Source: an uncultured Candidatus Binatia bacterium (GTDB taxonomy: Bacteria; Desulfobacterota; Binatia; UBA9968; CAXXLF01). From it: DNA of 64,000 bases. The notes under the pieces were generated by a model. It searched no databases. It saw only the letters and a program-made list of their open reading frames with translations, and was not told where the DNA came from. This document shows positions 4,111 to 22,324 of this stretch, in pieces (position 1 is the stretch's first letter; each line of letters starts with the position of its first letter). The translations under genes and the position numbers were made by a program. Location of the stretch: NCBI GenBank assembly GCA_965218425.1, contig OZ244621.1, positions 1,184,001 through 1,248,000 on the forward strand, in the 5' to 3' direction.

Positions 4111-5610
4111 ATGAAAACGATATGTGGGATTTTTACAGGCATGATAGTGTTCGTGGCGCTGGGTTGTGGAGGCACAAGCTCTAGTTCCAATTCCAATTTG
4201 CTCAATCAGAGTCCCGCGCTTAGGTACCCTGGTCGGGATTATCGTAACACCGCGGGAGTGGATATTCGTGATACCTGGAAAGAGACGAGCCCTATAAAGT
4301 CCCATTTCGGCCTGGAGCCTGGGGGTACGCCAATCGGCGGTCTTATTGATCATGCCGATCTTCCACAATTCAAAACGTCCGCGTGGACAATCCTGGGGTC
4401 AAAGAACGGTATCACTTACGGACAACAAATGTCGGGTCCCACAGACACCATCGACATTGATTTCACCGGATACTTTGCGGAATTGCCCGACTACGTGCAG
4501 GGCGCGCTGGAGCGGGCGGGGAAGTCCTGGTCTTATAGGCTGACCGACAAACTGGGTTCGCATCTATCAACGGATTCGCCTGTGACTGGGGTTACTAGAG
4601 TGGACGGACGAATTCCACCACGCAGCGTCGATGGTATTCTGATTGATATCGATTCCGATTATAACAACCCCGCGTGGGATTATGTTTGGGGGTATTCTCG
4701 TGGGACTTATCGGACCACTCAGACGGTAGGGGGGGACTTTACGGTCAGGACTGGTTGGGTCGATTTGGCGGCAACTACTATCGAGCAGGGTGATAGTTGG
4801 CTGGCACATATCGCTTCTCATGAAGTTGGTCACGCCATCGGACATAGTGCGACACATAATACGTTGCCAGAGACCATTGCCCGTTATGTGGACTTTGACC
4901 GGGGAGTATGGACCGGACCGGCATTGACGGCGGCTAATCGAGGCAGGAACGTGCCTTTCCAGGACCTTGACGGCGAAACGGATTTTGGTCACTTGGGTGC
5001 TTGCGCCATGATTATGTCCTATTGCGGTAATCCGATTGAAATCCCGCATGAGTTGGATTTCGCTTTCATGAAGGACATTGGCTACACCGTGGAGGACTCC
5101 TATCCTACAGTGCCCGAACAATACAGTTACGGCGCATGGGCGGAACATTCGGCTTGGGGTGTGTTGGCGGCTAGAAGTTTGACTTTCGCTTCCTATGGTA
5201 TAACCGATCATATTACGGTGCAGGCAGATGCCTTCGGGAACCCATCTAACACGGATTTTGCTGGTTCACATATCGGGACGCTACAGTGGAACGGTTCCTT
5301 ATTGGCGACGGATTTGGAGAAATTCGCGCCGGTTTTTGGCGATACACGTATTGTGTTGTCAGGTGACACCTTGGACGGCACTGTCTCATTTACGAATCTC
5401 CGTACGGTAAAAGATGCGGAAGGCGAGGTAGCGCTCATGCCGTGGCGCAGAGCTAGTTTAGGGTACGGCGTCAAGGTGGAAGGGAATAGTTTCAGGGATG
5501 TCGGTGAAAAAGTCAGCGGGGATTTCTACGGCCCGCAACACGAGGAAGTGGCCGGTGTCTTGAACGATGGGCCTGCAAAAATTCTGGGGGCTTTTGGCGG
5601 CACCAGATGA
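4111..5610 (+). CDS. Lipoprotein: zinc metalloprotease (metzincin-like) domain plus C-terminal transferrin-binding-like beta-barrel
   Basis: Lipobox VALGC, HEVGHAIGH zinc motif, IMSY Met-turn, C-terminal GDFYGPQHEEVAG...GAFGG; SD AGGAGG upstream. Confidence 0.75.
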   Translation: MKTICGIFTGMIVFVALGCGGTSSSSNSNLLNQSPALRYPGRDYRNTAGVDIRDTWKETSPIKSHFGLEPGGTPIGGLIDHADLPQFKTSAWTILGSKNGITYGQQMSGPTDTIDIDFTGYFAELPDYVQGALERAGKSWSYRLTDKLGSHLSTDSPVTGVTRVDGRIPPRSVDGILIDIDSDYNNPAWDYVWGYSRGTYRTTQTVGGDFTVRTGWVDLAATTIEQGDSWLAHIASHEVGHAIGHSATHNTLPETIARYVDFDRGVWTGPALTAANRGRNVPFQDLDGETDFGHLGACAMIMSYCGNPIEIPHELDFAFMKDIGYTVEDSYPTVPEQYSYGAWAEHSAWGVLAARSLTFASYGITDHITVQADAFGNPSNTDFAGSHIGTLQWNGSLLATDLEKFAPVFGDTRIVLSGDTLDGTVSFTNLRTVKDAEGEVALMPWRRASLGYGVKVEGNSFRDVGEKVSGDFYGPQHEEVAGVLNDGPAKILGAFGGTR

Positions 5611-6744: not shown

Positions 6745-6963
6745 ATGGTCGGAATGGAGGGACAGAAAGTGAGAAAAACGCTACCGCCACATCGTGTATC
6801 AGTGAGTTTCCCGCCGGAGTTATACGAGACTTTGGAAACGGTCGCGCGGCAGAAAAAAGTGTCGGTGGCGTGGGTCGTACGTGACGCGGCTGAGAGGTAT
6901 GTCGCTGAGCAATGGCCCCTGTTCGCAACAGATGACAGGGACCGATATGAACGATACAGATGA
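6745..6963 (+). CDS. CopG/ribbon-helix-helix regulator (probable R-M controller)
   Basis: RVSVSFPPELYETLETVARQKKVSVAWVVRDAAERY is a typical RHH fold pattern; the gene overlaps the REase start. Confidence 0.85.
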   Translation: MVGMEGQKVRKTLPPHRVSVSFPPELYETLETVARQKKVSVAWVVRDAAERYVAEQWPLFATDDRDRYERYR

Positions 6964-7762
6964 CGAATATTTGCGGATCGTACTTGATGCGATTCGAGTC
7001 TGTGCGCACTACAAGCCGAAATTCGGTCAGGGAGCGAAGGGCGGTGGTTTGACGTTGGAACAGTTCCGTGACCTCTATCAGGGAGACGCCTTCTATAGCT
7101 GGTTCGGGTTGGATAACCCGATGATGTACGCGGCACACAAGGCTGCCGGAGGCATGACGAGTGTGTACCGGCAGATCGGAATTGGGTGCGAGAGGTTGTT
7201 TCGCAGGGTGGTGAAAGATTCTTTCGAATTGTCAGAAGAAGATGTGACCTGGTCGTATCAGGTGACGTTGCCAAGTGGACGGAAGCGAACACTGTATCTA
7301 GACGGGCGGGTACCTCTTGAGAAGATCGGCAACAAAGACAAACGGGAGCGTTTCCGTGGGTGGATGAGGGATTCTGCGAAGATGCTGGATGTTGAACAGA
7401 AGGTATTCGAGAGCTTGACGGGCACGATTTTTGAGATCCGGCAGGGTTATAAGAGCAAGGACTCGAAACGGCAGAATGCCGATATCGCCAACGCTGCCAC
7501 GGCCTACACGAAAGGGTATTTTCCTTGCGCAGTGATCTTGTCGGGACAAATCGACAGCGATGTGCTTTTGCGGTACCGTGCCGAGAAATGGTCGGTTGTG
7601 ACAGGGATTGTCGGTGCAACAGACCCGCTGATATCGACATATGACTTCATGCGGAATGTCATTGGATATGACTTATCGGCGTTCTTTGAACGGAATAGTT
7701 CCACGCTTCGCGAGGAGATCGACACCATTCTGATAGCCCTTTTAGCCCCGGAGGCGACATGA
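6947..7762 (+). CDS. Type II restriction endonuclease (AvaII/HgiCII-like by recall)
   Basis: YRQIGIGCE...LYLDG...FEIRQGYKSKDSKRQNAD, a PD-(D/E)xK-type pattern; 4-nt overlap with the downstream MTase. Confidence 0.75.
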   Translation: MNDTDDEYLRIVLDAIRVCAHYKPKFGQGAKGGGLTLEQFRDLYQGDAFYSWFGLDNPMMYAAHKAAGGMTSVYRQIGIGCERLFRRVVKDSFELSEEDVTWSYQVTLPSGRKRTLYLDGRVPLEKIGNKDKRERFRGWMRDSAKMLDVEQKVFESLTGTIFEIRQGYKSKDSKRQNADIANAATAYTKGYFPCAVILSGQIDSDVLLRYRAEKWSVVTGIVGATDPLISTYDFMRNVIGYDLSAFFERNSSTLREEIDTILIALLAPEAT

Positions 7763-9006
7763 GTGTAGTTGCCAGAGAAAAACTTCGCCAAAGAGCGGAC
7801 TATACGCATAAGTTCAACGCAAAGACGGGGCGGCATGGCTGGTTACGGCTGACACCTGCGTACTCGGTGAAGATTGTTGAAGAGCTTATGGACCAGTACG
7901 AAGAACCGTTGCGCGTGCTGGACCCGTTTTGTGGAACGGCGACGACAGCGCTGAGTGCGGCGTATCACGGGCACGAAGGCGTGACGACGGATATCAACCC
8001 GTTCCTGGTCTGGCTCGGCCAAGCGAAGATGGCGCAATACTCTGGTGCCTCGATAGTTTCGACACGTCGGGCATGTGCACGGGTGGTTGAGTCGGTGAAA
8101 CGGGGAGCGGTTGAGCCGGTGAAAGCGCCGCCTATTCATAACATTGAAAGATGGTGGTCGCCGGAAGCGCTGGAGTTTTTATGCACACTGAGGGCCGGTA
8201 TCGAAGCAGAAAGTAGGTACAATTCGCCGGAAAGGGCGTTTCTGCTGGTAGCGTTCTGTAGAACTCTGATCGAACTTTCGAACGCGGCTTTCAATCACCA
8301 ATCCTTGTCTTTTAAAGATGACGGGCAATTGCATCTCCAGCTCGATATCGACATGAGGCATGTGTTTAGCGAAGACGTGCAGTTCGTGTTGGAAGGTGCG
8401 GGGGAGAATCCGGAAGGAACGGGAAATGTAGTTTTCGGTGATTCCAGGAAGCTGCCGGGGGTAGTAGACGGCTCCTTCGATTTGGTGATTACGTCTCCGC
8501 CATATGTAAACCGGATGTCGTACATCCGTGAGCTGCGGCCGTACATGTATTGGCTCGGATTTCTGAATAACGGTCGGGATGCTGGCGAGCTTGACTGGAC
8601 GGCAATCGGTGGCACATGGGGGGTAGCAACAAGCAGACTGATTGATATGGAACGTCCAGGGGAGCCGTTTAAGCACCCGCTGCTCGATGAGGCATTGAAC
8701 GGGATAGCGCATCACGACAACAAGAGCGGGAAGATACTGGCAAGTTACGTGGCGAAGTATTTCGATGACATGTGGGAGCACTTTAATTCTCTAATCCCCG
8801 TGCTGAGCGAGGGCAGTGAGGTGCATTACATCGTGGGGAATTCCACGTTCTACGGTGTGCTCCTGTCGGTCGAGAGGCTATACGCGGCGATGCTTGAACG
8901 CTTGGGGTTTAAAGGGGTCGAGTGCCGCGCGATACGTAAGCGGAATTCAAAGAAAGAGTTGTTTGAGTTCGACGTTTCGGCGCGATGGATCGGGCGGAAG
9001 CCATGA
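7759..9006 (+). CDS. Amino-DNA methyltransferase (probably N4-cytosine, alpha order)
   Basis: Motif I LDPFCGTATT near the N-terminus and motif IV ITSPPY later. Confidence 0.88.
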   Translation: MSVVAREKLRQRADYTHKFNAKTGRHGWLRLTPAYSVKIVEELMDQYEEPLRVLDPFCGTATTALSAAYHGHEGVTTDINPFLVWLGQAKMAQYSGASIVSTRRACARVVESVKRGAVEPVKAPPIHNIERWWSPEALEFLCTLRAGIEAESRYNSPERAFLLVAFCRTLIELSNAAFNHQSLSFKDDGQLHLQLDIDMRHVFSEDVQFVLEGAGENPEGTGNVVFGDSRKLPGVVDGSFDLVITSPPYVNRMSYIRELRPYMYWLGFLNNGRDAGELDWTAIGGTWGVATSRLIDMERPGEPFKHPLLDEALNGIAHHDNKSGKILASYVAKYFDDMWEHFNSLIPVLSEGSEVHYIVGNSTFYGVLLSVERLYAAMLERLGFKGVECRAIRKRNSKKELFEFDVSARWIGRKP

Positions 9007-10437: not shown

Positions 10438-10515
10438 GTATTTAATTCCCTTTCAATGTAGTCGAGAGGGTCGAATGCATCGTTTTAGCTCCGGCGGATT
10501 GATGTGGCAGGCGGC

Positions 10516-11769
10516 ATGAGTATTGGTAGAAACACGCAAACCGAGTGCAGACCGAGGGACGCTGTCTATCTGGACTATGCCGCAACGACGCCTGTCGACA
10601 CGCAGGTCATTGCGGTGATGATAAGGTATCTGGGGTTAGAGGGGATCTTCGGTAACGCTGCGTCGCGGTCACACCGCTTTGGACGCGAAGCCGAAGAGGC
10701 AGTGGAGATGGCACGAGAGCAAGTAGCCGAACTCATCAATGCTGATCCATCTGAGATTGTTTGGACATCGGGGGCTACTGAGTCCGTCAATTTGGCGATC
10801 AAGGGCGTAGCGCATGGACATGCCGACCAGGGCAAACATCTTGTCACTTCGAGTCTGGAGCACCATGCTGTTCTGGATTCATGCGATCAATTGGCCCGCG
10901 AAGGATATGAAATCACTTATGTTGACCCTGACCGGGACGGCCTGATCTCCCCAGAGCATGTGGAACAGGCCCTGAGAGACGACACCATTCTTGTCTCCCT
11001 GATGCATGTGAACAATGAAGTCGGGACCATCACCGACATCAAAGCGATAAGCGAAATAACCCGTGCCCGCGGGATCGCATTCCATGTGGACGCCGCACAA
11101 GGCGCGGCGCGTCTATCCCTCGACTTGCGCTCGATTCACGCGGACCTTGTTTCCCTTAGCGGACACAAGATGTACGGGCCAAAAGGTATCGGAGCGTTGT
11201 ACGTGCGTCACCGACCCCGCGTCCGGATCGAACCTCAGATACATGGCGGAGGTCAGGAACAGGGTATCCGCTCGGGGACGCTTGCGACACATCAAGTGGT
11301 CGGCATGGGCAAGGCCGCACAATTGACGTGTGAACGCCGAAAGCAAGATGTCGAAGCTGTCGCCGTGCTCGATCACCGCTTGCTGGAACGTCTTGCAGAT
11401 ATTGAGCACACCTTTATAAACGGCAACGAAACGCATCGTGTCTCAGGAATTGCAAACGTTGGCTTCGCATGCGTCGAGAGTGAGTCCCTCATGATGTCGT
11501 TGAAGGATGTTGCCATCTCATCCGGGTCGGCTTGCACCTCGTCCCACGTTGAGTCGTCCCACGTCTTGCGATCGCTAGGTTTGCCCGACGACCTTGCGAG
11601 TTGTTCAGTCCGCTTCAGCCTCGGACGATTCACGACCGAGCAGGAAGTCGACTTTGCTGCAGAGCGTGTGAGGGAATCCGTAAATGCGCTACGCCAATTG
11701 TCTCCCCAATGGAGATCGCTCCACCGAAACATTCGTAAAACTAAACCAAATCGCGTTCGTACTGATTAG
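10516..11769 (+). CDS. dndA: Cysteine desulfurase DndA (IscS family)
   Basis: [19 protein letters not shown] (PLP lysine) and SSGSACTS (catalytic Cys); 6 nt upstream of dndC. Confidence 0.92.
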
Positions 11770-11775
11770 TATGAC

Positions 11776-12969
11776 ATGAACGAGCACATCCAATTTAGAA
11801 ACATCGCAAGCGGCGACCATGGTAACATCTTCCATGTTGTCAAGCGTCTTGACGTCGCCATGGACGCCATTCGAAGAGAATACCTGCGAAAGCACGTCGA
11901 TCCGTGGGTGCTGGCCTATTCGGGCGGAAAGGACTCGACCCTGCTTCTTCAACTAACGTGGGAGGTGTTGGCATCGCTCCCTGTCCGTGATCGACGGCGT
12001 AAGATCTATGTCGTGGGCAACGACACGCTTGTCGAGTCGCCGTTGGTGATCCAGCATCTCAGAACCACTATGGCGACGATCAAGGATGCTGCTGCTGCGG
12101 ACGGACTGCCAATCGAGACGCAGATCACGAGGCCGCACATCGACCAGACTTTCTGGGTAAACGTGATTGGGCGCGGTTACATTCCCCCGACGCGGAACTT
12201 TCGGTGGTGTACCGATCGGATGAAAATCCTTCCGACTACCCAGCTCCTTGACGGACTCGTTCGATCACACAAGCGCGTTGTGCTACTGGTGGGAACGCGA
12301 AAAAGCGAGTCCGAGAATCGGCGCCGCAACATGACGAAGCATGGCGTTTCTGCAACCAAGATGAATCCTCACAGTTCCGTGGAACGCTGTCGAATGTTCG
12401 CGCCGCTGGCCGAATTCGAAGACCAGGACGTTTGGCTAATCCTGATGCAGCGAAAGCCACCGTGGGGCGGCTCGCATCGAGATCTAATCACGCTGTATCG
12501 TAATGCTGGAGGTGGAGAGTGCCCGTTGGTGCTGTCCAAGGCCGATGCCCCGTCATGCGGAACGACCTCGCCCAGGTTCGGTTGCTGGACATGTACGGTC
12601 GTAAAGAAAGATCGGAGCTTGCGAGGCTTGATTGATTCCGGTCACGAACACGCAGAAGTCTTCGCACGTCTCTTCGACTTTCGTGAGTGGCTGGTCCAAC
12701 TGCGTGAAGACAACGCAAATCGCCAGCGAGTGCGGAGGGACGGAAACTCCAAATCTCGTGCAGATGGAACCCTCGTGATGGGACCCTTCACGCTTGATGT
12801 TCGCGAACGTATCCTGCGCCGACTAAAGGTGCTCGAAGACGATACTAGGCAGCAACTCATTTCCGAATCTGAGCTTGATGTTATCAAAGACATCTGGCGT
12901 TGCGATCAGGTTCGAGAAGAGTGTCGCACTGCGTTACGCAACACGTTCGCCGACGGAGCCTCAGTTTGA
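11776..12969 (+). CDS. dndC: DNA phosphorothioation sulfurtransferase DndC (PAPS-reductase family)
   Basis: WVLAYSGGKDS, DTLVE, FWVNVIGRGY, FRWCTDRMKI, ECPLV, RFGCWTCTVV. Confidence 0.95.
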   Translation: MNEHIQFRNIASGDHGNIFHVVKRLDVAMDAIRREYLRKHVDPWVLAYSGGKDSTLLLQLTWEVLASLPVRDRRRKIYVVGNDTLVESPLVIQHLRTTMATIKDAAAADGLPIETQITRPHIDQTFWVNVIGRGYIPPTRNFRWCTDRMKILPTTQLLDGLVRSHKRVVLLVGTRKSESENRRRNMTKHGVSATKMNPHSSVERCRMFAPLAEFEDQDVWLILMQRKPPWGGSHRDLITLYRNAGGGECPLVLSKADAPSCGTTSPRFGCWTCTVVKKDRSLRGLIDSGHEHAEVFARLFDFREWLVQLREDNANRQRVRRDGNSKSRADGTLVMGPFTLDVRERILRRLKVLEDDTRQQLISESELDVIKDIWRCDQVREECRTALRNTFADGASV

Positions 12970-14756
12970 CAACTCAGCGCCAGACGGTCATTGAGGCGGA
13001 GGCGATGTTGTTTTCGGACCTTTTCCCCCAGGGCCGATTCGCCGTCCCGTGGCACCAGCGCTACTACGATTGGAAGCCGAGCGATGTCCGAGCACTTCTC
13101 TACGATATCGATGAAGCGATCAAGGAAAAGCGCGAGTGTTACTTTCTGGGTGCGGTGATGCTGGTTGAAGTCGAACCTAGAAAATGGGAGATCAACGACG
13201 GCCAACAACGAATGGTAACAATATCGCTGATCTGTGCCGCACTTTGCCGACGATTCGCTCGGGAAGAAAGGGGTTCGCAACGTGAAGGGCTCGCGCTGTG
13301 CATGCTGTTCGATCTGAACACTAATAGCGTCTCGACTTCAGACGACGTGGAACGCTACACTCCCCGGATTTCCCCACCGCAGAACGACGCGGCGCGGTAT
13401 CACCAGTTGATCCGTGGCAACACGATTGGAACCAACGGCAAGCTCACCGCCGCATGGGCAGAGATTGAAAAATTCTTCACTCCGATGAGTCAGGAAAAGT
13501 CGAAGGAGTATTTCGACTTTCTTTACAAAAAGTTGGAAATTACCTGCTTGCAGGTTCCGTCAAACATAGATTCGAACGCGGTGTACGAGACGCTTAACTA
13601 TAGAGGCAAGAAACTCGACGATTTGGACCTGATCCGTAATCATCTGTATTCGCACTTCAACGTGACCGGCGAATCCGAGAGAAGGCAATCGATACATGTG
13701 AATCTTGAGAGGATCCGCACAACGATTGCCAGCACCACAAAGGCATCCGAATACTTGCGTTGTCACCTGCAATGCCGGTTCGGCTTCCTTAGCAAGGACA
13801 ACTTCTACCGCGACGTACGTTCTGCCATTAAAACACGGAGGAATAATGAGCGCGGGCCGACGGGTTCCCAGGCCGACTACGTCTTCCACCTAACGAAACA
13901 AATCTCTGCTCCTGAGTCTCTGCAACTCTTCCAGACGATGACGGCAAAAGGCCCAGAACCGGAATTTATCAGGGCGTTCGAAAAGGACTCTGGGACAACA
14001 AATTCACCGAGGAATCTAGAAGTTTTTTTTCGGGAGTTGGGTGCATATAAGGTCACTCAGCCCCTAATTTTCGCCATGTTGACCAGGTACATACGTGAAT
14101 CGGACGGCGGAACAAAGAGGCAGATTGCAAGGTCCGTCAATAAAAACCTGAGTCGCTTGGCGACATTCGTCCTCAGAACGGCATTTGTTGCACCTAAGTT
14201 TGAGCCTTCGCATTTCGAAACAAAGTTTTCCAACTATGCCAAACACATCGCAACCGCCAACGTCCTTCCTAATGACAAATTTGCTGATTTTCTAAAGGAA
14301 TGCGATGCTTCAGAACACGGAGTGCTAGATGACTCCAAGTTCCAAAACGCTATGGTCGAGGCGACGATGAAGGACAAAAAAAAGATCAAGCGGTTTCTGC
14401 TCGGGATTAATCGCAACATACAACACGGTGCACGGCTATTGAACGAGCAATCCTGTAACGTCGAGCACATACTGCCAGAATCTTCGCAACACTGGAGTGC
14501 TTGGACCAGCTTCAAGGATGTCGATGGGAGCGAGTGGGTTAATAGAATCGGGAATCTGACCCTGGTGGGACCGGCGGACAATCAGCCTGGACCGAAGTAT
14601 AATGGTGATTTTGCGAAGAAGCGCGAGAGCTATCGAGGCAGTGAAGTCGCGCTTACCCGTGAGCTGAGCAAACACGTTGATTGGACCCCTACCACCGTCG
14701 AAGCGAGACAGCGGGAGTTGGCGAAACGAGCCGCGCGTGTTTGGACGTTCGTTTGA
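12966..14756 (+). CDS. DUF262 + DUF1524(HNH) protein, GmrSD/SspE-like modification-linked nuclease
   Basis: VPWHQRYYDW, INDGQQR, YETLNYRGKKL; C-terminal VEHILP...IGNLTL...N. The TTG start overlaps the dndC stop (TTGA). Confidence 0.88.
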   Translation: MTTQRQTVIEAEAMLFSDLFPQGRFAVPWHQRYYDWKPSDVRALLYDIDEAIKEKRECYFLGAVMLVEVEPRKWEINDGQQRMVTISLICAALCRRFAREERGSQREGLALCMLFDLNTNSVSTSDDVERYTPRISPPQNDAARYHQLIRGNTIGTNGKLTAAWAEIEKFFTPMSQEKSKEYFDFLYKKLEITCLQVPSNIDSNAVYETLNYRGKKLDDLDLIRNHLYSHFNVTGESERRQSIHVNLERIRTTIASTTKASEYLRCHLQCRFGFLSKDNFYRDVRSAIKTRRNNERGPTGSQADYVFHLTKQISAPESLQLFQTMTAKGPEPEFIRAFEKDSGTTNSPRNLEVFFRELGAYKVTQPLIFAMLTRYIRESDGGTKRQIARSVNKNLSRLATFVLRTAFVAPKFEPSHFETKFSNYAKHIATANVLPNDKFADFLKECDASEHGVLDDSKFQNAMVEATMKDKKKIKRFLLGINRNIQHGARLLNEQSCNVEHILPESSQHWSAWTSFKDVDGSEWVNRIGNLTLVGPADNQPGPKYNGDFAKKRESYRGSEVALTRELSKHVDWTPTTVEARQRELAKRAARVWTFV

Positions 14757-14901
14757 TGCTTGATACACCACAACTTCGGCGTCTCGCCGAGGACCATCTC
14801 CACGTTCCCACGACGCTTCATAACTAAACAATGAGAAAGTATCAGGTCCTTGTCTTTGTTCAAATTCACGATTGAAATGAGACGTTGGGGAGTATGTTGT
14901 C

Positions 14902-15111
14902 ATGAAAATATCAAAAGATGAAATTGAACTCATATCAAAGATCGCTGCCGATCACGAAATCAAAGGTGATGTGATCGTACAACTTCTTGAGCTTGAAGAG
15001 GAATTTCCAGATGTTCACGCGTGGGGAGCACGTGCAAATCTTAAACGTAAAATTGCTCAAACACTTGAGCAAGCAGCAAATCAGGCGAACCCGACCGATC
15101 CTAATCGATGA
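14902..15111 (+). CDS. Small Dnd-associated helical protein
   Basis: 69 aa, QLLELEEE..., with an ATGA overlap with dndD; resembles the small genes found between dndC and dndD. Confidence 0.7.
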   Translation: MKISKDEIELISKIAADHEIKGDVIVQLLELEEEFPDVHAWGARANLKRKIAQTLEQAANQANPTDPNR

Positions 15112-17144
15112 TCTTCAAACGCATACGCCTTGAGAACCTGTTTGCCTATAAGGGTATTCAGGAAATTGATCTTACGGGGTGCGGTAAGGGAAGGAACATT
15201 ATTCTTATTTCTGGCCGCAATGGTACAGGTAAAACAAGCTTTATCAATGCTGTCAAACTTCTATTCCTTGGCGCTAACGATCAGCGTCTGCGACGTGTTG
15301 GCTTCCCGCCTACGACTCTTGCCACAGGCCAATTTGTTCGGGGTGTTCCGGGCGTGTGGTCCGGTTTGTTCAACACTCAAGCGCGACGCGACGATTCTGA
15401 ACGAGCGTCAATATCAATCATTTGGGAAGAAGAAGATGGAGTTGAGTTTGAGGCCCGACGAAGCTGGCGTTTGAATGGTCCTAGCTACGAAGAGAACCTC
15501 GATCTATACAAAAACGGAGAAGCGTCAAATCCAGACGACGTCTCCTTGCAGCTTGCAGAAAAACTGCCGCACGACTTTGTGCCGTTCTTCTTTTTTGACG
15601 GCGAACAAATTCGTGAACTTGCCGAAGCGGAGGAGGATATCACTGCAAATGAGATCGAACGCATATTGAACCTCTCCTTTGTGGGCGAAATAGAACAGGG
15701 CGTGTCGGAATTCGTACGGCAGCGTCGCCGTGAGGCGCTACCCGAAGAAACGCAGGTTCGAATACGACGTGCCGAGGGAGAACTTGCCACGAAACAGGCA
15801 GAAAAAGCGGTGGCGGAAAGACGGCTGATGAATTTTCAAGAGGCCATCCAGAAGACCGAGTCCCGCAAACGTGAACTGACGGTCGAGAGGGACGAATTAC
15901 GTACCGGTGTTTCCGACGCGGACCGACTGCTTCTCGAACAACGCCTGGAGACGTTGGAATCGCAAAGATCGGATTTGGCCCGTAAGATCAGCGAGACTCT
16001 GCCGCCAGAGGCGCCGTTCCTCGCAAACCTTAAACTAACACTCCGCGCATACGGGGATGTAGAAACCGTCGTATCGGCACGAGCCGCTCAGGAACTTGGG
16101 AGGCTCGACACTCTACGTCGAGAACTGCCCCACCGGCTGCTGGATCAGGAGCCACACCCTGAAACGCCGCTCGACCCATCCCAGATTGAACACTTACGCG
16201 GGAAGCTCCTATCGCTCATAGAAGAATATACTACTCTGGAGACAGCAGATCAGTTGCCATCCTATCTCCGAACACTCGATCTTGCTAGCGCCCAGAGTTT
16301 GCGCGACCGTTACCTAATTTGGGTTCGCGAGGGCGTAAGACACAGACGTTCCATCGCCACAGAGTTACAACAGATACGCAAGCTTACTGTAGAGGCGGAA
16401 CAAACGACGGAAGAACTAGCCCGGGTATCTGTCGCGTCGAAGGGCCACCTTCAACGCTTTCGCGAGATATCCAAGGAGCTTGACGAACTCGATAATGAAT
16501 TAGCCGCTAAGCACGAGGATGTCGGAAAGGTTGAGGCCGAAATCTCTCAATGCGCGCGCACCATATCCGAAACCCGTAAGCAAGTCGCCGCGCTTGAAGA
16601 AGAACACGAACAAGCCAGAATGACTGGCCAGACTGTCCAATACGCAAGACATGTCGAGGCAGTTCTGCACGAATATAGAGCACGCCAAAGAGAGTTGAGG
16701 CGCACCTCTGTCGAAAAACGCATTAACGAGAAACTGGGTATTCTTCTAGCCGAACACGGACAAATCGGGCGCGTAAACCTCAGCAACCGGTTCATAATGA
16801 CGTATTATGACAAACATGATCAAAAAATTGGGCGCGTAAGTATTTCTGCCGGCATGAAGCAGCTCGTCGCAACAGCATTACTGTGGGCACTAAAGGACGA
16901 ATCCGGTAAGAAGATACCTCTGGTCATCGATACACCACTTGCTCGCATCGACCGCCGAAATCGCGCGCGTCTTTTGGACTCCTATTACCCTAATGCGGGG
17001 GAGCAGGTCATTGTGCTCCCCACAGACAGCGAGATTGATGACAGCCAGTTACTGCATCTCGCTCCACATATTGCCAAAAGGTACCGGATAGAGAATGTCG
17101 ACGGCGAAAACGCCAAGATTGTTCTGGATCAAACCAATGTCTAA
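15108..17144 (+). CDS. dndD: DNA sulfur modification protein DndD (SMC-like ABC ATPase)
   Basis: GRNGTGKTS, FFFFDGEQI, long coiled coil, ISAGMKQ, IDTPLARID, YYPNAGEQVIVLPTDSEI. Confidence 0.95.
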   Translation: MIFKRIRLENLFAYKGIQEIDLTGCGKGRNIILISGRNGTGKTSFINAVKLLFLGANDQRLRRVGFPPTTLATGQFVRGVPGVWSGLFNTQARRDDSERASISIIWEEEDGVEFEARRSWRLNGPSYEENLDLYKNGEASNPDDVSLQLAEKLPHDFVPFFFFDGEQIRELAEAEEDITANEIERILNLSFVGEIEQGVSEFVRQRRREALPEETQVRIRRAEGELATKQAEKAVAERRLMNFQEAIQKTESRKRELTVERDELRTGVSDADRLLLEQRLETLESQRSDLARKISETLPPEAPFLANLKLTLRAYGDVETVVSARAAQELGRLDTLRRELPHRLLDQEPHPETPLDPSQIEHLRGKLLSLIEEYTTLETADQLPSYLRTLDLASAQSLRDRYLIWVREGVRHRRSIATELQQIRKLTVEAEQTTEELARVSVASKGHLQRFREISKELDELDNELAAKHEDVGKVEAEISQCARTISETRKQVAALEEEHEQARMTGQTVQYARHVEAVLHEYRARQRELRRTSVEKRINEKLGILLAEHGQIGRVNLSNRFIMTYYDKHDQKIGRVSISAGMKQLVATALLWALKDESGKKIPLVIDTPLARIDRRNRARLLDSYYPNAGEQVIVLPTDSEIDDSQLLHLAPHIAKRYRIENVDGENAKIVLDQTNV

Positions 17145-17147
17145 GGA

Positions 17148-18647
17148 ATGACCATGGACAAATTTTATTTCGGACGAGATGAACGAGCTTTCATGTTCCG
17201 CGTGATAGAAAAAGGAATGCTGCAAAAGCCAGGCCAAGCTCCACAATGGTGGGTTGTACGCCTCGCCTTGGCAAAATCTTTACAATTCGAAGAGCCTCCC
17301 AACGATGATAAGTTTGCGCCGCCACCGCATGTCCAAGGCGGAAGCGAGTTGCACCTTGATCAGATTACCGGAAAAGATAAGGGCGGATTGGAAGATTATA
17401 CACGCGCGTTGAAGCTTTTGCTGTCGGCACGTCATGGTGCCGACCTTATAAGCAATGATGCACTTTTTGAAGAGACACTACACAGACATATACGCAGAGG
17501 TCTTCATGAAATAAAAATTTCGTGGCGTGAAAATTCTGATTTCTTTGATTATTTGTATCAAGATTTGTTCTTTGAGAAGTTTACAAACGAATCCGGTGAG
17601 ACAAGCCTCGGCGATATATCAAATGAAGACCTGACTTTAGCACTGCATAAGATAGGGGTACGCGTTGAGGTTGAACAAAAACTTGATGGCCCAAGATTGT
17701 CGCGCTTCAGACTTGTTTTATCCGGTGTCGACGATTACGACAAACTACGAAGAAACATCGACGATCTCAACTTTATTCTTGGTCTGAGTGCTAACAGCAT
17801 ATCGTTTGAATTGGGTGGGGGCGAACGCAGGATTGTCTTGGACATCCCGCGACCAATGTCCATCTGGCACTACATAAAATGGGCTGAGGCTCAGAAGGCT
17901 CTTCAGGAAACGTCCTACCGCTTGCCTGTCTGTTCGGCTACCGACGTTCTGGGCGTTCCCATTTCTTTTGATTTGGCCTCCGCGCCCCATCTCTTGATAG
18001 GCGGCACCACTGGTAGCGGGAAAAGCATCTGTGTCCACGCGATCATATTGTCGCTGATTGTGTGCGTTGAGCGCCCGGAGTTGGTTCTCGTTGACCCGAA
18101 GGCTGTCGAGTTGACGGCGTATACGAACTACGGAAATCTGAGAGGAGGCCGTGTCATTACAGATATGGCTGATGCGAGGGCTGTTTTTCAAGAACTTGTG
18201 AAGACGATGGACCAAAGGCAAAAGGACTATATGTCTATCGGCGTGCGCGACATCGACGAAGCTCGGAAAAAGGGTAGCGATGACCGCAGCATTGTGGTGG
18301 TCGTCGACGAACTGGCAGACCTTGTCCTAGGAAACCCAGAGGTTGTCGGTCCACTTGTCCGTCTTGCCCAAAAGGCGCGCGCTTTTGGCATTCATTTAGT
18401 GTTGGCCACACAGCGCCCAGAGGCAGGAACATTTCCCGGCCTGTTACGGTCCAACATACCAAGCCGTATCGCGCTGACTGTCCAGAAAAATTCCGAGTCA
18501 CGGATCATCCTGGATGAGGGAGGCGCGGAGAACCTGCTCATGCGGGGCGACATGCTTGTACGCATGGTCGGTCAGAAGACAATCCGCGCGCATGGCGTCA
18601 GCGTGTCGCAGTCGGATATCGAAAGGGTTCTTGCCGAACATGGCTAA
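17148..18647 (+). CDS. dndE: DndE-like domain fused to an FtsK/SpoIIIE ATPase domain
   Basis: The N-terminal PQWWVVRLALAKSL...GSEL...RHIRRGL is DndE-like. The C-terminal GPRLSRF, PHLLIGGTTGSGKS, LVDPK, VVDELADL, LATQRP and GAENLL.RGDML are FtsK motifs. No TM segments or gamma domain. Confidence 0.82.
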   Translation: MTMDKFYFGRDERAFMFRVIEKGMLQKPGQAPQWWVVRLALAKSLQFEEPPNDDKFAPPPHVQGGSELHLDQITGKDKGGLEDYTRALKLLLSARHGADLISNDALFEETLHRHIRRGLHEIKISWRENSDFFDYLYQDLFFEKFTNESGETSLGDISNEDLTLALHKIGVRVEVEQKLDGPRLSRFRLVLSGVDDYDKLRRNIDDLNFILGLSANSISFELGGGERRIVLDIPRPMSIWHYIKWAEAQKALQETSYRLPVCSATDVLGVPISFDLASAPHLLIGGTTGSGKSICVHAIILSLIVCVERPELVLVDPKAVELTAYTNYGNLRGGRVITDMADARAVFQELVKTMDQRQKDYMSIGVRDIDEARKKGSDDRSIVVVVDELADLVLGNPEVVGPLVRLAQKARAFGIHLVLATQRPEAGTFPGLLRSNIPSRIALTVQKNSESRIILDEGGAENLLMRGDMLVRMVGQKTIRAHGVSVSQSDIERVLAEHG

Positions 18648-19815
18648 CGAAGAGCGCAATATCCACATCCGCGACTTCCGTCTGGTTAAGCTCACACTCG
18701 TAGATGTTGGCCCATTTCGGGAGTATTATGAAATAGACTTTACTGGCGCACCGCTATCCACAGGTGCCGAGAAGGGCAGTGAAACCGCGTGCGAACCAGC
18801 AAATTTTTTCTTGTTACTTAGCAAGAATGGTTTCGGCAAAACCACGGCCCTTGAGGTGATCACGCTACTTTTTGATCTGCTCGGCAAATCTGAAGCTTCC
18901 CGTTTTGGCCATTACGACCTCGATGATGGCACGGGTAAGATACAGGCAGATTTTCGTGCTAACTGGTCTATCGACGACTCGCGCTCACCCGTCCTTCTTT
19001 CGATCTGGGCGGGAAGCGAAGGACCCGTTTATGTTTGGACCAAAAGTGATATCGAGTCTGTTGCGAATGCCTCTGAGTGGGCCAAGGTAGGCTTTGTACG
19101 TTCGCGATCATCAGACCGGATAGAGCTTGGGCCAGGAACAAACGAACTTGGCAAGATCCTCGCAACGGCTATCCGGCACGCGGTCGGCACACCGCCGCCA
19201 GCGCTGTTCGGAGAGGGTTTTGATCTGCCGACAGTGCTCTTCTTTCCAGCCGACCGCGCCGTAAGGCGCCCGCCACTTGCGGGCCGTGCAGTGTCGAGGC
19301 CGGAGCACTGGGGATATCGACCGTCCTTTCGGTTTGAAGTCGACGGGACTGAGTGGGCGAACTCCCTTGACAATTTGTTGGTTTGGCTCTCGTGGCTGGC
19401 GGACGACAGAGACCGTGTCTTGCGAGAATACGTTGAGAAAACCGTATTTATGGATGGCAGAAAAGGATTACTGGAAGTAGACCGTGAGCGACTATCCGCC
19501 AATGTCAAGACACCCGACGGGGTACATCCGCTCTACAACCTCAGCCACGGTGAAAGGCAGGTGTTGCAACTTCTTGTACGCACACCGGTCCACATGACGA
19601 ACAGCACGATTTTGCTGATCGATGAAGTCGAAATGCACCTGCATCCAAAGTGGCGGGTCACACTATTGGAAACGCTCAAAGTGCTTGTCAAAGATTTTGA
19701 GGGCCTTTCAGTAATTGTGACAACCCATGAGCGCGAACTCATACAGGTGTTTCAACATGAAGTGCCCGAAGAGGGCTTAGTGAAAGGTGGATTCTTGATC
19801 GAGCAGGACTTGTAA
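18640..19815 (+). CDS. ABC-type (AAA_15/AAA_21) ATPase, AriA/OLD-like
   Basis: Walker A variant SKNGFGKTT, signature LSHGE, Walker B LLIDEVEMHLHP, TTH; overlaps both neighbours. Confidence 0.85.
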   Translation: MANEERNIHIRDFRLVKLTLVDVGPFREYYEIDFTGAPLSTGAEKGSETACEPANFFLLLSKNGFGKTTALEVITLLFDLLGKSEASRFGHYDLDDGTGKIQADFRANWSIDDSRSPVLLSIWAGSEGPVYVWTKSDIESVANASEWAKVGFVRSRSSDRIELGPGTNELGKILATAIRHAVGTPPPALFGEGFDLPTVLFFPADRAVRRPPLAGRAVSRPEHWGYRPSFRFEVDGTEWANSLDNLLVWLSWLADDRDRVLREYVEKTVFMDGRKGLLEVDRERLSANVKTPDGVHPLYNLSHGERQVLQLLVRTPVHMTNSTILLIDEVEMHLHPKWRVTLLETLKVLVKDFEGLSVIVTTHERELIQVFQHEVPEEGLVKGGFLIEQDL

Positions 19816-20690
19816 TGCCGAACTTAAGAGAGCTGGGGGACAGCAATGCTGTTGATAATAAGTATGTCGACCGGATCGTGTTTTATGTAGAAGGTGAGGA
19901 TGATAAAAGTCTTCTGACTGTCTACTTGTTGAAGCATTACGTCTCTAAAGTTGAAGTCAAAACGCCATCAGCATTGGGAAGCGGTTACCTGGGGGTAATT
20001 CAACGGGTTAGCCAAGAGCGAGGTATGAACGGAAAAATCTTCGGCATAGTCGATGGTGAAGCGCTTTTGCCCTTGGGGCATGTTTCGATATACAAAGAGA
20101 TGTTTGGAGGATGGAATTGGATCACCCTTCCTAAATTTGACGGCATTTACTTTATTCCGTGTTGGGAGATAGAAAACCTTCTCTATATTAGAGATATTTT
20201 GCCACAGACGCTTATTGCCCTTCAGCCTGTATCGAAGCTCTCGCGTTTGACTGAAAGATCTGTCGAAAACATCATCCTGACGGAGGCATTCCGACTTTCA
20301 GAGTTATCTTCGTTGAATTTAGCACTTTTAGCAGAGTCGTATGATACAATAAGAGCAGAAACAAAATCGAACATTGAGAAAAGACATGATTTACTTACGG
20401 AAATTGGGACGACGATCGCCTCGTTAGATAAGGCTCACTTAGTGAAAAATGGGTATGATAATTGGAGGCAATTTTTTCGCGAGCTCCTTCGAGGGAGCCG
20501 AACACGAGACAAAATATACGATGAATTTATTAGTCGTGTTGACGGGAAGGCATTATCTATAAGATTGAGTAAAAAATTAAATGTTCAACCCGACATTCGT
20601 TCAACACTCGCGTACAATTTTTCCAATAATAAGAAAACAATGAAAATTATTGACGCGCTATTGGAAACGGTCAATCGGCGCGTTCCGTGA
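19815..20690 (+). CDS. TOPRIM-fold nuclease (DUF4435/AriB-like)
   Basis: IVFYVEGEDD, GIVDGE, WEIENLL and a C-terminal DGK; TAATG coupling to the ATPase; visibly AT-richer. Confidence 0.75.
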   Translation: MPNLRELGDSNAVDNKYVDRIVFYVEGEDDKSLLTVYLLKHYVSKVEVKTPSALGSGYLGVIQRVSQERGMNGKIFGIVDGEALLPLGHVSIYKEMFGGWNWITLPKFDGIYFIPCWEIENLLYIRDILPQTLIALQPVSKLSRLTERSVENIILTEAFRLSELSSLNLALLAESYDTIRAETKSNIEKRHDLLTEIGTTIASLDKAHLVKNGYDNWRQFFRELLRGSRTRDKIYDEFISRVDGKALSIRLSKKLNVQPDIRSTLAYNFSNNKKTMKIIDALLETVNRRVP

Positions 20691-21232: not shown

Positions 21233-22324
21233 TTATCGATTAGCATTCCGAAGTTCGCGATGAATGATCCGGTGACAGTTTGCGCATAGGCACATCAGGT
21301 CTTGCAGTTGCGTATTGTGTCCGGGCGGCATGTCGGCTAACGGAAGTTTGTGATGCACATCGATGCACGCATCACCGATATCGATCCCATAGACTTCTGC
21401 CGGATCTAGTCCGCAGCGTTCGCATAGCAATCGGCCGTGTTCACTTATGAACGCCGCCTTTTTTGCCGGTGCAAGCCCCCATCCCCGCTCGCGTTGAAGG
21501 TGGATTACATACTTCGGGTGCCCTTCGATCCAATCGCGTTCGTCCGGGTTTGGCGGTACTTCAACGGGTTGGACCGGCCCGTCCTTCGGGACGATCCGGT
21601 ATCCGGCGGCGGTGATCGCTTTGAAGCAGGGGGTTCCGATGCCACCCACAAAGTGATACGGCAAAACCTCGAAGCCGAGAGCTTCGGACACCGCTAGACC
21701 GAACACGGCCTTAGGTGCAAGGCGCGACCCGTCCTCGGTAATAACGTCATAGTCAGTGGATTCACCGAACGAATGCTCGCCTGAACCGAAAAGAAGCCGT
21801 TGCACCGCACGCCAGATGTGTTCGGCAGATACCGGCTGCAACTCTGCAGCCCGTAGCCTTTTGCGTCGGTTTGAGGCTGCGCCAGTCTCGCCCCAGCCTG
21901 CAATCCGGGCGATCCGCTCGCCGGGGGGATTTCCGGTAAATGCGAAACGAAGCCTTTTTGTGGAATTTCCACGGTTGTTTCGGTTGTTCGGATCACGACC
22001 GACCGCAGCCATTCTGTTCGAGAATCTGGTGAACAATTCAGACGGCGAAACCTGAGTGTCTTCGGGAAGGAGTATTTTTCTTTCCTCCATTGGCAAATTT
22101 TGGACACGACTGCTGTCTACCCACACTCCGACCAACGTCAGGTCCGATTGATCGATTCGCTCGAGAAGAATACGCAGTGCCTCACCATATTTAGTGTTTT
22201 GTGCGTTGGTGGTGTCTTTGGTTCCGCCGCGCGAATGCAAAATTAGTTTTCCTTCCTGTACTTCGAAATGAGCATCCATTGGAGTACCGGAATCATTGTG
22301 GAATTTGTATAAGGTTACCGACAC
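21233..22324 (-). CDS. HNH endonuclease, McrA-like putative modification-dependent (type IV) restriction enzyme
   Basis: C-terminal EG...HLQRER...CERC...IDVHH..PL...DLMCLCANCHRIIH; middle domain with APKAVFGLA...FVGG, like the ScoMcrA head domain. Confidence 0.8.
   Translation of the reverse strand: MSVTLYKFHNDSGTPMDAHFEVQEGKLILHSRGGTKDTTNAQNTKYGEALRILLERIDQSDLTLVGVWVDSSRVQNLPMEERKILLPEDTQVSPSELFTRFSNRMAAVGRDPNNRNNRGNSTKRLRFAFTGNPPGERIARIAGWGETGAASNRRKRLRAAELQPVSAEHIWRAVQRLLFGSGEHSFGESTDYDVITEDGSRLAPKAVFGLAVSEALGFEVLPYHFVGGIGTPCFKAITAAGYRIVPKDGPVQPVEVPPNPDERDWIEGHPKYVIHLQRERGWGLAPAKKAAFISEHGRLLCERCGLDPAEVYGIDIGDACIDVHHKLPLADMPPGHNTQLQDLMCLCANCHRIIHRELRNANR

Follow-up and report, generated by a model that had tools for sequence, protein, structure and literature searches.

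The gene at positions 17148-18647 (forward strand) of the window, the whole 64,000-nt stretch of DNA analysed here, encodes a DndE subunit joined to a soluble FtsK-type motor. Its 499 open codons give a two-domain fusion protein of 499 aa. Residues 1-145 (17148..17582, +) are the DndE domain, with two ribbon-helix-helix units and C-terminal helices (Pfam, AlphaFold, Foldseek, hhalign), and residues 159-499 (17622..18647, +) are the FtsK alpha-beta motor without the gamma domain (Pfam, PDB profile, Foldseek). A flexible linker at residues 142-153 (17571..17606, +) lies between the domains; the full-length model falls below pLDDT 50 only here and at residues 457-463, and the linker columns were weakly conserved and variable in length (alignment A1). 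A DndE-like N-terminus followed by an FtsK motor was what the first-pass annotation had read from the sequence, and domain searches, motifs and fold all matched it. We consider it probable, at roughly 0.6, that the fusion serves a non-canonical phosphorothioation (Dnd) module as its DndE subunit and as the DNA-handling core partner for DndC. The find is sound and fairly ordinary, as the DndE-FtsK fusion has been described before and a related fusion has already been tested. The novelty implied by the annotation is therefore unsupported, because a DndE-HerA/FtsK fusion beside a DndD-related ATPase has been published (PMC10853773).

The N-terminal ~140 residues were confirmed as DndE-like by sequence and by structure. 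The motifs quoted for this assignment lie at residues 38-45 (RLALAKSL), 65-68 (GSEL) and 113-119 (RHIRRGL). Pfam DndE (PF08870) matched residues 29-123 at 25.1 bits (E 2.2e-5), a thin margin over the cut-off of 25. It scored the fusion 27.7 bits in a six-frame search of the genome and matched 40 of the 47 aligned full-length homologues at E <= 0.01, the best at 2.7e-8. In hhalign, the N-terminal profile aligned over 125 columns with an annotated 142-aa 'DndE family protein' (96.1% probability, E 2.9e-9).

A structural comparison of the N-terminal domain with DndE, proposed beforehand, placed DndE structures at the top. The AlphaFold model of residues 1-154 (pLDDT 81) consists of two strand-helix-helix units (E5-8/H10-23/H33-45 and E66-69/H70-74/H85-96) and then a long C-terminal helix (H104-125), so that the tandem ribbon-helix-helix pair and C-terminal helix of solved DndE are both present. 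VIA-align returned DndE 7x4e as the best PDB match (Z 11.7, rmsd 2.8, 110/114 residues) and 5wtu as a second DndE structure (Z 8.7), followed by an F-plasmid relaxosome chain (Z 7.0) and a drop to 3.8; in Foldseek, ranks 1-10 were DndE throughout, the next match shown being rank 17. Identity to the solved DndE structures is 13-16%. A PDB sequence search with the family profile gave no DndE at E <= 1, and the link to solved DndE therefore rests on the fold and on the Pfam and hhalign matches. An ESM Atlas search with residues 1-155 gave no usable match. As a caveat on the preferred reading, the PF08870 score is only at the cut-off and the Foldseek E-values for DndE are weak (0.05-0.4). Compared with canonical DndE (E. 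coli B7A, 4lrv/5wtu; Natronorubrum bangense, 7x4e), the window domain matches in fold and in full domain extent, and its gene occupies the same place after dndD, starting 3 nt beyond it, as had been noted in the annotation. Canonical DndE, a subunit required for phosphorothioate (PT) modification that binds (nicked) double-stranded DNA, is a free protein of ~110-140 aa, whereas the window domain carries a 350-aa motor.

The motor matched Pfam FtsK_SpoIIIE at E 3.1e-36, and from its position ~151 onward the family profile aligned with the motors of E. coli and P. aeruginosa FtsK (E 1e-80 to 1e-82). Foldseek aligned the motor with 6t8b_B (P. aeruginosa FtsK) at TM 0.80 and 34% identity over 379 columns. 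Walker A (GTTGSGKS, residues 286-293, 18003-18026), Walker B (VVVVDE, residues 383-388, 18294-18311) and ATQRP (residues 420-424) are all intact. Pfam FtsK_alpha was matched at E <= 0.01 by 7 of 47 homologues, the window's protein not among them; the alpha domain of the motor is backed by the PDB profile and Foldseek alignments. The annotation had also described a motor with no membrane anchor and no gamma domain, and this proved correct. The sole hydrophobic 19-mer, which starts at residue 289 (KD 1.83), corresponds to the helix that follows the P-loop, the fusion stops 4 residues past the region aligned with the host FtsK, which continues for ~95 residues, and its Pfam matches at E <= 0.01 include no gamma-domain family. 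Cellular FtsK (P. aeruginosa 2iuu/6t8b, E. coli 2ius) has the alpha and beta domains, Walker A/B and ATQRP in common with the window motor at 32-34% identity (34% for the host's own FtsK), but it also has an N-terminal membrane domain, a long linker and a KOPS-reading gamma domain. The fusion has none of these and is therefore not a chromosome-segregation FtsK.

The proposal that the motor stands in for DndH held for the ATPase and failed for the rest. PADLOC SspH models matched the motor over their C-terminal ATPase (1.6e-44 and 1.3e-33), and the C-terminal HerA/FtsK ATPase is common to DndH/SspH and the fusion. As described in PMC10853773, however, DndH/SspH proteins run to ~1600-1800 aa and combine helicase-like and target-recognition domains with an inactive methylase and a restriction-endonuclease domain; these are absent from the fusion, and no restriction-endonuclease or methylase family is among the Pfam matches of its 499 aa.

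The genes upstream supply the other Dnd components. In the DndA position lies an IscS-type cysteine desulfurase (10504..11769, +; Pfam Aminotran_5, 1.5e-83), which matched PADLOC SspA (2.7e-159) and DndA (3.1e-158) and the NCBIfam IscS model NF010611 at 577.9 bits against a cut-off of 548. It is followed by the DndC core, a PP-loop/PAPS-reductase sulfurtransferase of 397 aa (11776..12969, +), which matched NCBIfam TIGR03183 over profile positions 5-365 of 447 at 346 bits (cut-off 290) and contains, in alignment A4, SGGKDS together with a Cys cluster, PSCG...FGCWTC. The small protein Sp-DndD (69 aa, 14902..15111, +) matched Pfam PF20306 at E 6.9e-11 and 42.5 bits (cut-off 27.2). A small protein of this kind thus has its own Pfam family, and a text search of the literature returned no paper naming Sp-DndD together with DndD. 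The DndD-clade ABC ATPase bearing a coiled-coil insert (678 aa, 15108..17144, +) matched NCBIfam TIGR03185 at 293 bits (cut-off 246); its best PADLOC models are PbeC (1.8e-100), with DndD at 1.1e-85. In alignment A5, no variation occurs at the Walker A, signature and Walker B columns; the sequence contains no CxC motif.

Downstream of the fusion lie an ABC-type ATPase and a Toprim-like protein. The ATPase (391 aa, 18640..19815, +; Pfam AAA_21, 1.1e-15), with its likely start at ATG 18640, contains NGFGKT, LSHGERQ and LLIDEVE, and matched PADLOC AriA (6.9e-16), PtuA (2e-15) and mad3 (3.8e-12) and, in the PDB, AriA 8ux9 (5.4e-7). The DUF4435 protein (291 aa, 19815..20690, +) scored E 7.3e-6 and 26.3 bits in Pfam, just below the cut-off of 27, and matched PADLOC AriB at 5.8e-7; a PDB search with its profile gave no match. 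Its acidic residues E26, D30, D80, E118 and E120 are invariant in a six-sequence alignment (A3), and it is probably a nuclease. The order Sp-DndD, DndD, DndE-FtsK, ABC ATPase and Toprim-like DUF4435 forms a tightly coupled operon, in which overlaps of 4 nt join the Sp-DndD stop to the dndD start, of 8 nt the fusion stop to the ATPase and of 1 nt the ATPase stop to the DUF4435 start, and in which the fusion follows dndD after 3 nt. Terminator-like sites in the window were at shuffled expectation, a promoter scan was uninformative, and no tRNA was found in 1-26000.

Between dndC and the small-protein gene lies a GmrSD-type nuclease gene with a DUF262 N-domain and a DUF1524/His-Me C-domain (13005..14756, +; Pfam GmrSD_N 1.5e-23, GmrSD_C 6.2e-22). 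Its ORF opens at TTG 12900, and ATG 13005 is the likely start. PADLOC matched it to HEC-06 (4.5e-72), Orf5 and, weakly, SspE, and the PDB to the DUF262 protein 9jfl (1.9e-9) and SspE 6jiv (4.9e-5). The gene sits exactly at the junction of two parts that are fused in other loci: in L004 and L009, whose DndC proteins have 470 and 453 aa, the Sp-DndD domain forms a C-terminal tail of DndC that the window DndC does not carry. The domain is a separate ORF in L010, L005 and L093. We rejected a reading of 14902-15111 as the severed C-terminus of DndC, based on a weak PRK06850 match and tblastn, as the ORF belongs to the Pfam family Sp-DndD; the separate genes in L005, L010 and L093 also counter it.

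The fusion is a family of constant architecture. The 120 homologues listed were all 485-510 aa and covered 95-100% of the query, and the DndE domain is in the same polypeptide in all 47 that were aligned. A search with the N-terminal 250 aa gave 95 representatives at 50% clustering, of which 51 are 470-560 aa, and Walker A is present in 48 of these 51. A metagenome scan based on full-length alignment, with search patterns taken from the FtsK motor, kept 80 loci; the two examined were L009, the only one in which the N-terminus was covered, and L010, shown to be a fusion by Pfam. Gene order was compared in eight other loci, too few for statistics. In all eight, the gene immediately upstream of the fusion encodes a DndD-type ATPase (in pieces in L092), and the ABC ATPase and DUF4435 pair lies downstream in six, with frames that overlap or abut. 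The more distant loci L010 and L096 have DndC, the small protein, DndD and DndE-FtsK only, without the downstream pair (for the small protein, the Pfam test covered L010), and DndB adjoins the cluster in L096. A canonical DndD-DndE pair stands beside the cassette in four loci (L005, L006, L092 and L093), all of which are among the six with the ATPase/DUF4435 pair.

In the complete source genome we detected one DndC, one DndD and one DndE match, and no DndB. With only one detectable DndD and DndE, the fused pair is most likely the core that serves DndC, and the fused protein most likely the working DndE of this genome. In genomes G460 and G1153, too, no DndE match other than the fusion was detected. 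Under the preferred reading, a complete DndE with two DNA-binding ribbon-helix-helix units would be tethered by a short flexible linker to a soluble alpha-beta ATPase motor, without membrane anchor or KOPS-reading gamma domain, and would act as the cognate partner of the DndD-clade ATPase encoded just upstream and of Sp-DndD. The predicted DndD/DndE-FtsK complex would be the DNA-scanning and handling core on which DndC and the IscS-type desulfurase rely to insert sulfur. The motor may supply ATP-driven movement along DNA or local DNA opening, the role reported for the ATPase/helicase domain of 'DndEi'. Consistent with a Dnd core, the Sp-DndD domain is physically linked to DndC by fusion in L004 and L009. 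The translationally coupled ABC ATPase/DUF4435 pair and the GmrSD-type nuclease would probably be restriction or suicide arms alongside this core.

Two uses of the motor had been suggested in the annotation. That the modification complex carries its own translocase is the best fit, because the fusion is the sole DndE in three genomes, the clusters of L010 and L096 are minimal, and the ATPase/helicase of DndEi is described as needed for modification; translocation itself is predicted. A coupling of PT status to downstream nucleases by the motor is possible, judging from the ATPase and Toprim-like pair that follows the fusion here and in six of the eight other loci.

Two published proteins resemble the fusion by description. 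In PT systems, DndE fused to a HerA/FtsK ATPase beside a DndD-related ATPase is covered by one main-text sentence on 'clade-3' HerA/FtsK domains, which cites Krishnan et al., NAR 2020 (Rakesh, Aravind and Krishnan, NAR 2024, PMC10853773). The window likewise has DndE and ATPase in one polypeptide, a DndD-related neighbour and a PT neighbourhood; this likeness by description is drawn from the domains and the DndA, DndC and DndD matches. A whole-word search of the main text alone of PMC10853773 found no Toprim or OLD-type pair linked to the fusion. The second is DndEi of Riemerella anatipestifer (Zheng et al., J Biol Chem 2016), described in PMC6435447 and PMC7464106 as an extended DndE with an ATPase/helicase domain. 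According to PMC6435447, inactivation of its ATPase/helicase activity abolished PT modification, and its ATPase was stimulated by DNA with the PT recognition motif. An ATPase-inactivation experiment of the kind proposed in the first-pass annotation has thus already been done for DndEi, which we liken to the window fusion by description only.

A tentative alternative is that Sp-DndD, DndD, DndE-FtsK, the ABC ATPase and DUF4435 form a restriction or defence module that reads the modification state and does not write it. DndD/DndE-FtsK would then scan DNA and pump it to the Toprim-like nuclease, PT writing would be weak, absent or carried out by DndC in another way, and the parallel would be with Pbe where it adjoins Dnd, or with MAD3-MAD4 as an arm of MADS. 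The overlapping or abutting ATPase/DUF4435 genes of six loci are consistent with this, as is the separate canonical DndD-DndE pair in four of these six. PbeABCD, as described in PMC10853773, comprises a CxC ABC ATPase, a DndE cognate, a small protein and an HKD nuclease-helicase, and is often found beside canonical Dnd. The small protein, the coiled-coil ABC ATPase and the DndE cognate are common to Pbe and the window, PbeC models are the best PADLOC matches of the DndD-clade ATPase, and the modelled 22-residue C-terminal helix of the fused DndE recalls the Pbe-type 'clade-2' DndE of that paper. The PADLOC models matched also include mad8 for the motor (4e-28) and mad3 for the downstream ATPase, and MAD3-MAD4 of MADS is described as a 2:2 complex with ATPase and DNA cleavage (PMC13662399). 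MAD3-MAD4 and AriA-AriB of PARIS may have a counterpart in the window, where an ABC-type ATPase and a candidate Toprim-like/DUF4435 protein are encoded as a pair next to a DNA-modification system.

Against a module that only reads, DndC has no other DndE in the source genome, G460 or G1153, and L010 and L096 carry the fusion without the ATPase/DUF4435 pair. The window also differs from Pbe: its DndD lacks a CxC zinc hook, the scanned ORFs (1282 to 22324) gave no HKD or helicase family, FtsK is fused to DndE, and the candidate nuclease is the Toprim-like DUF4435 with its own ABC ATPase. The match to MAD3-MAD4 and AriA-AriB is weak and partial, mostly in the C-terminal ATPase signature region, with DUF4435 below the Pfam cut-off, and the modification of MADS is m6A whereas that predicted for the window is PT. 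A point against the preferred reading is that, with the canonical DndD-DndE pair present in four of the eight loci, the fusion is not required as the only DndE there, and in L005, L006, L092 and L093 it may have another job.

An arrangement that combines writing and restriction is conceivable but doubtful. The five-gene cassette would be a PT-linked defence system, in which one FtsK-driven DndD/DndE scanner guides DndC and feeds an OLD-like nuclease. DndC would write PT on self DNA and unmodified DNA would go to the nuclease, so that the window would be a natural minimal version without a second DndD/DndE pair. The permissive junction of DndC and the small protein might have recruited the GmrSD-type nuclease as an extra arm.

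It is unlikely that the locus is decaying or partly uncoupled, with a GmrSD insertion that broke modification and left the fusion idle here. A GmrSD counterpart was found by tblastn in none of the eight other loci, DndC and the small-protein domain are one polypeptide in L004 and L009, and L092, on a Rhizobium plasmid, is a decayed copy of the cassette with frameshifts. In the window, however, every cassette gene is an intact ORF with its motifs kept, and the separate small-protein genes of L005, L010 and L093 indicate that separation from DndC is a natural state. The repeats flanking the GmrSD gene are short, imperfect two-copy matches only, with no other transposon traces. The position of the GmrSD gene could still weaken the coupling of DndC and the small protein in the window. 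It is highly improbable that the fusion belongs to a mobile element as its DNA-transfer or segregation FtsK, with the dnd genes merely adjacent: weak matches to the coupling proteins TrwB_AAD_bind (Pfam, 8.6e-5) and TraB (NCBIfam, 3.9e-9) and the probable horizontal acquisition described below point to it, but the DndE domain shares the polypeptide in 47/47 homologues, DndD lies upstream in 8/8 loci, and the scanned ORFs (1282 to 22324) gave no conjugation, relaxase or integrase family.

On the preferred reading of the fusion as the DndE of a Dnd core, the protein bears on the question of how Dnd machinery locates its sites and modifies only some of them. A motor for double-stranded DNA attached to DndE suggests that the protein tracks along DNA actively and not by diffusion. 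The window adds no new kind of protein, because the fusion has been published and a related one tested. What it offers is a complete genome whose only DndD/DndE pair is motor-fused, with this pair tightly coupled to a putative OLD-like ATPase/nuclease pair and with a GmrSD-type nuclease in the same gene string. It is thus a clean natural case for separating the writing and restriction functions of the scanner genetically.

The cassette was found in none of 60 relatives searched, and it was therefore probably horizontally acquired. Matches numbered 0/400 in a sample of the phylum, 0/400 in the order of G461 and 1/300 in the family of G462, and a single-protein query of viral contigs gave no relative. 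In a quick tree, the host FtsK and P0199 lie on long branches, and we therefore make no claim on rooting or origin. Loci with a single DndD-DndE pair and loci with two interleave in this tree, so the role of the fusion may differ between close relatives.

The dnd genes of the window form one string on the plus strand: an IscS-type cysteine desulfurase gene in the dndA position (10504–11769), the DndC core (11776–12969), a GmrSD-type nuclease gene (ORF from 12900, likely start at 13005, to 14756), the gene for the 69-aa small protein Sp-DndD (14902–15111), dndD (15108–17144), the DndE-FtsK fusion ORF (17148–18647), an AAA_21-type ABC ATPase gene (likely 18640–19815), and a DUF4435 gene (19815–20690). 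From Sp-DndD to DUF4435, successive genes overlap by 4 nt, are separated by 3 nt, overlap by 8 nt, and overlap by 1 nt, in that order. Because these reading frames overlap or abut, the five genes look like one translationally coupled unit. The fusion is present in a single copy in the genome, and its gene is tightly coupled to those of the ABC ATPase and the Toprim-like DUF4435 protein.

Residues 29–123 of the 499-aa fusion product match Pfam DndE just at the curated cut-off (25.1 vs 25 bits); of 47 aligned full-length homologues, 40 hit this family too. A profile of the N-terminal domain built from six loci aligned with an annotated 142-aa DndE of a Mesorhizobium plasmid (96.1% probability, E 2.9e-9, 125 columns). 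An AlphaFold prediction for the full-length protein (mean pLDDT 84.6; alignment of 47 sequences) has, within residues 1–145, a pair of strand-helix-helix units plus a helix of 22 residues, and a low-confidence linker (142–153) precedes the motor; modelled by itself, the DndE domain reached pLDDT 81. Among ~48,000 PDB representatives, the two closest in fold to this domain are DndE structures (Z 11.7 and Z 8.7); a chain of the F-plasmid relaxosome comes next (Z 7.0), and all the rest reach at most 3.8. The top rows of a Foldseek search were solely DndE chains, with weak E-values. Since fold searches rank DndE structures first, the lack of structural similarity that the first-pass annotation had named as grounds against its own proposal does not apply.

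The motor matched Pfam FtsK_SpoIIIE (3.1e-36) and, by sequence profile, the crystal and cryo-EM structures of E. coli and P. aeruginosa FtsK alpha-beta (1e-80 to 1e-82), and its fold agreed with FtsK alpha-beta structures at TM 0.80 and 34% identity. Residues 166–495 also share 34% identity with the FtsK of the host. The Walker A, Walker B, and ATQRP sensor motifs are intact and are invariant across the DndE-FtsK family. Alignment with the host FtsK revealed no gamma domain, and neither the model nor hydrophobicity revealed a membrane segment. One chain contains an entire DndE domain together with an entire FtsK alpha-beta motor whose motifs are intact, and this confirms in full the earlier observation of DndE fused to a soluble FtsK motor with intact Walker motifs.

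The DndE-FtsK fusion is already in the literature, and a relative has been studied experimentally. Rakesh, Aravind and Krishnan (NAR 2024, PMC10853773) describe DndE fused to a HerA/FtsK ATPase and adjoining a DndD-related ATPase, citing the authors' own 2020 ABC-ATPase survey. The relative is DndEi of Riemerella anatipestifer, an extended DndE whose extra domain, according to the review PMC6435447, has helicase and ATPase activity; inactivating these activities abolished phosphorothioate (PT) modification, and the ATPase was stimulated by DNA with the GAAC/GTTC PT motif. By its description, DndEi resembles DndE-FtsK as an extended DndE with an ATPase.

The best 120 homologues are all 485–510 aa long, with 95–100% query coverage and, for those from other organisms, 46–78% identity. 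A search with the first 250 residues against 1.84 billion representatives (50% identity) gave 95 matches at E ≤ 0.001: 51 of 470–560 aa, 43 shorter, and one repeat protein of 4665 aa (P0122). In P0122, residues 176–224 of DndE-FtsK, part of the FtsK alpha domain, were matched in 49 separate stretches, so alpha-domain-like repeats form a long array in this protein. DndE-FtsK is rare per genome: searches of 60 relatives, of a 400-genome sample of the same phylum, and of 400 genomes from the order of one carrier found none, and among 300 genomes from another carrier's family one had it. It was probably acquired horizontally in this genome.

Neighbourhood counts rest on eight other DndE-FtsK loci: L004 (Paracoccaceae genome), L005 (Bosea), L006, L009 and L010 (metagenome contigs), L092 (Rhizobium plasmid, with frameshifts), L093 (Mesorhizobium amorphae plasmid), and L096 (genome G1153). 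A DndD-type ATPase gene lies directly upstream of the fusion in all eight, and the pairing of DndE-FtsK with a DndD-clade ATPase and Sp-DndD is conserved. Downstream, an ATPase gene and a ~290-aa DUF4435-like gene follow in six; they do not follow in L010 or L096, which group apart from the others with good support in a preliminary, quickly built tree. Five acidic residues are invariant when six of the DUF4435-like sequences are aligned. A second, canonical DndD-DndE pair sits beside the cassette in half of the loci (L005, L006, L092, L093), and the fused pair is the only DndD/DndE pair in the window, L004, L009, L010, and L096. Whole-genome searches found no DndE besides the fusion in this genome (complete, one contig) or in the genomes G460 and G1153. 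This genome has one DndC, one DndD, and no DndB match in a whole-genome search; the DndH model matched none of the control genomes, so its lack of a match here is uninformative. In L096, DndB adjoins DndC, the small protein, DndD, and DndE-FtsK, the usual dndBCDE arrangement except that the fusion replaces DndE. That cluster lies between two direct repeats (L096:1–2482 and 13853–16334; 100% identical, at least 2482 nt), each with a 527-aa ORF without Pfam match; an rve-integrase ORF adjoins one copy, and the whole arrangement is reminiscent of a composite transposon. L092 (Rhizobium sp. plasmid NZ_CP087976.1, 64694–89423) is a decayed double-pair cassette, in which tblastn and RefSeq annotation place DndC, both DndD, the fusion, and the downstream ATPase each in two or three pieces.

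In our favoured reading, with a probability of roughly 0.6, DndE-FtsK serves as the functional DndE of this genome's modification complex. The downstream ATPase/DUF4435 pair weakly resembles both AriA-AriB and MAD3-MAD4, the latter being, according to PMC13662399, a 2:2 ATPase-nuclease complex that cleaves DNA. It appears less likely to us that the five-gene unit serves chiefly for reading and restriction in the manner of Pbe or MADS, and such a role and that of a working DndE are not mutually exclusive. As the working DndE, the fusion would form a DNA-scanning core with DndD, as PMC10853773 argues from co-evolution for DndD-DndE pairs generally. The FtsK ring would drive the complex along the duplex or open the DNA locally, after which DndC, with sulfur from the desulfurase, would write PT, as is reported for DndEi. 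The ATPase/DUF4435 pair and the GmrSD enzyme are probably restriction or suicide arms. The first-pass interpretation, a translocase carried by the modification complex or a motor coupling PT status to nucleases in place of DndH, is partly supported.

The small protein belongs to Pfam PF20306 (Sp-DndD), named 'DNA modification system-associated small protein' in RefSeq. This domain is the C-terminal tail of a 453–470-aa DndC in L004 (6562–7974) and L009 (6607–7968) and a separate ORF directly before dndD in L005, L010, L093, and the window. Up to about residue 391, the window DndC can be aligned with the fused forms, whose tail aligns with the small protein; NCBIfam PRK06850 includes the Sp-DndD region at positions 405–461. 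These alignments suggest that Sp-DndD, or the DndC tail, may tether DndC to the DndD ATPase. Being fused in some loci and separate in others, the junction is a place where genes can sit: it holds the canonical DndD-DndE pair in L093 and, exactly between the DndC core and Sp-DndD genes, the GmrSD-type nuclease gene in the window. The nuclease has DUF262 (Pfam 1e-23) and DUF1524 (6e-22) domains and is distantly and weakly similar to the PT-sensing SspE. No counterpart was found by tblastn in any of the eight other loci, and no repeats mark an insertion around the gene. Locally new are the fused pair as the sole DndD/DndE pair of a complete genome, its frequent pairing with ATPase/DUF4435 genes, and the GmrSD gene at this junction; with eight comparison loci, these are experimental leads and no new kind of finding.

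Upstream of the dnd string, defence-island content was seen at 6881–9006 (+) and 1282–2142 (−). The former includes a type II-like DNA methyltransferase (7759–9006; PADLOC MTase_II 2e-26, also mad2 8.6e-12), whose start overlaps a 293-aa ORF without family match; the latter encodes a protein with an HsdR_N-like domain. Another 499-aa ORF (4111–5610, +) is unrelated to DndE-FtsK, its sole match being a weak one at the C-terminus to the TbpB beta-barrel family (1.3e-4, below cut-off). Just after the cassette, a convergent gene (21233–22324, −) encodes a 363-aa protein without family match in its N-terminal 290 residues; its C-terminal HNH domain resembles E. coli McrA (PDB 6ghc, 5e-8; PADLOC type IV enzyme, 3e-9).
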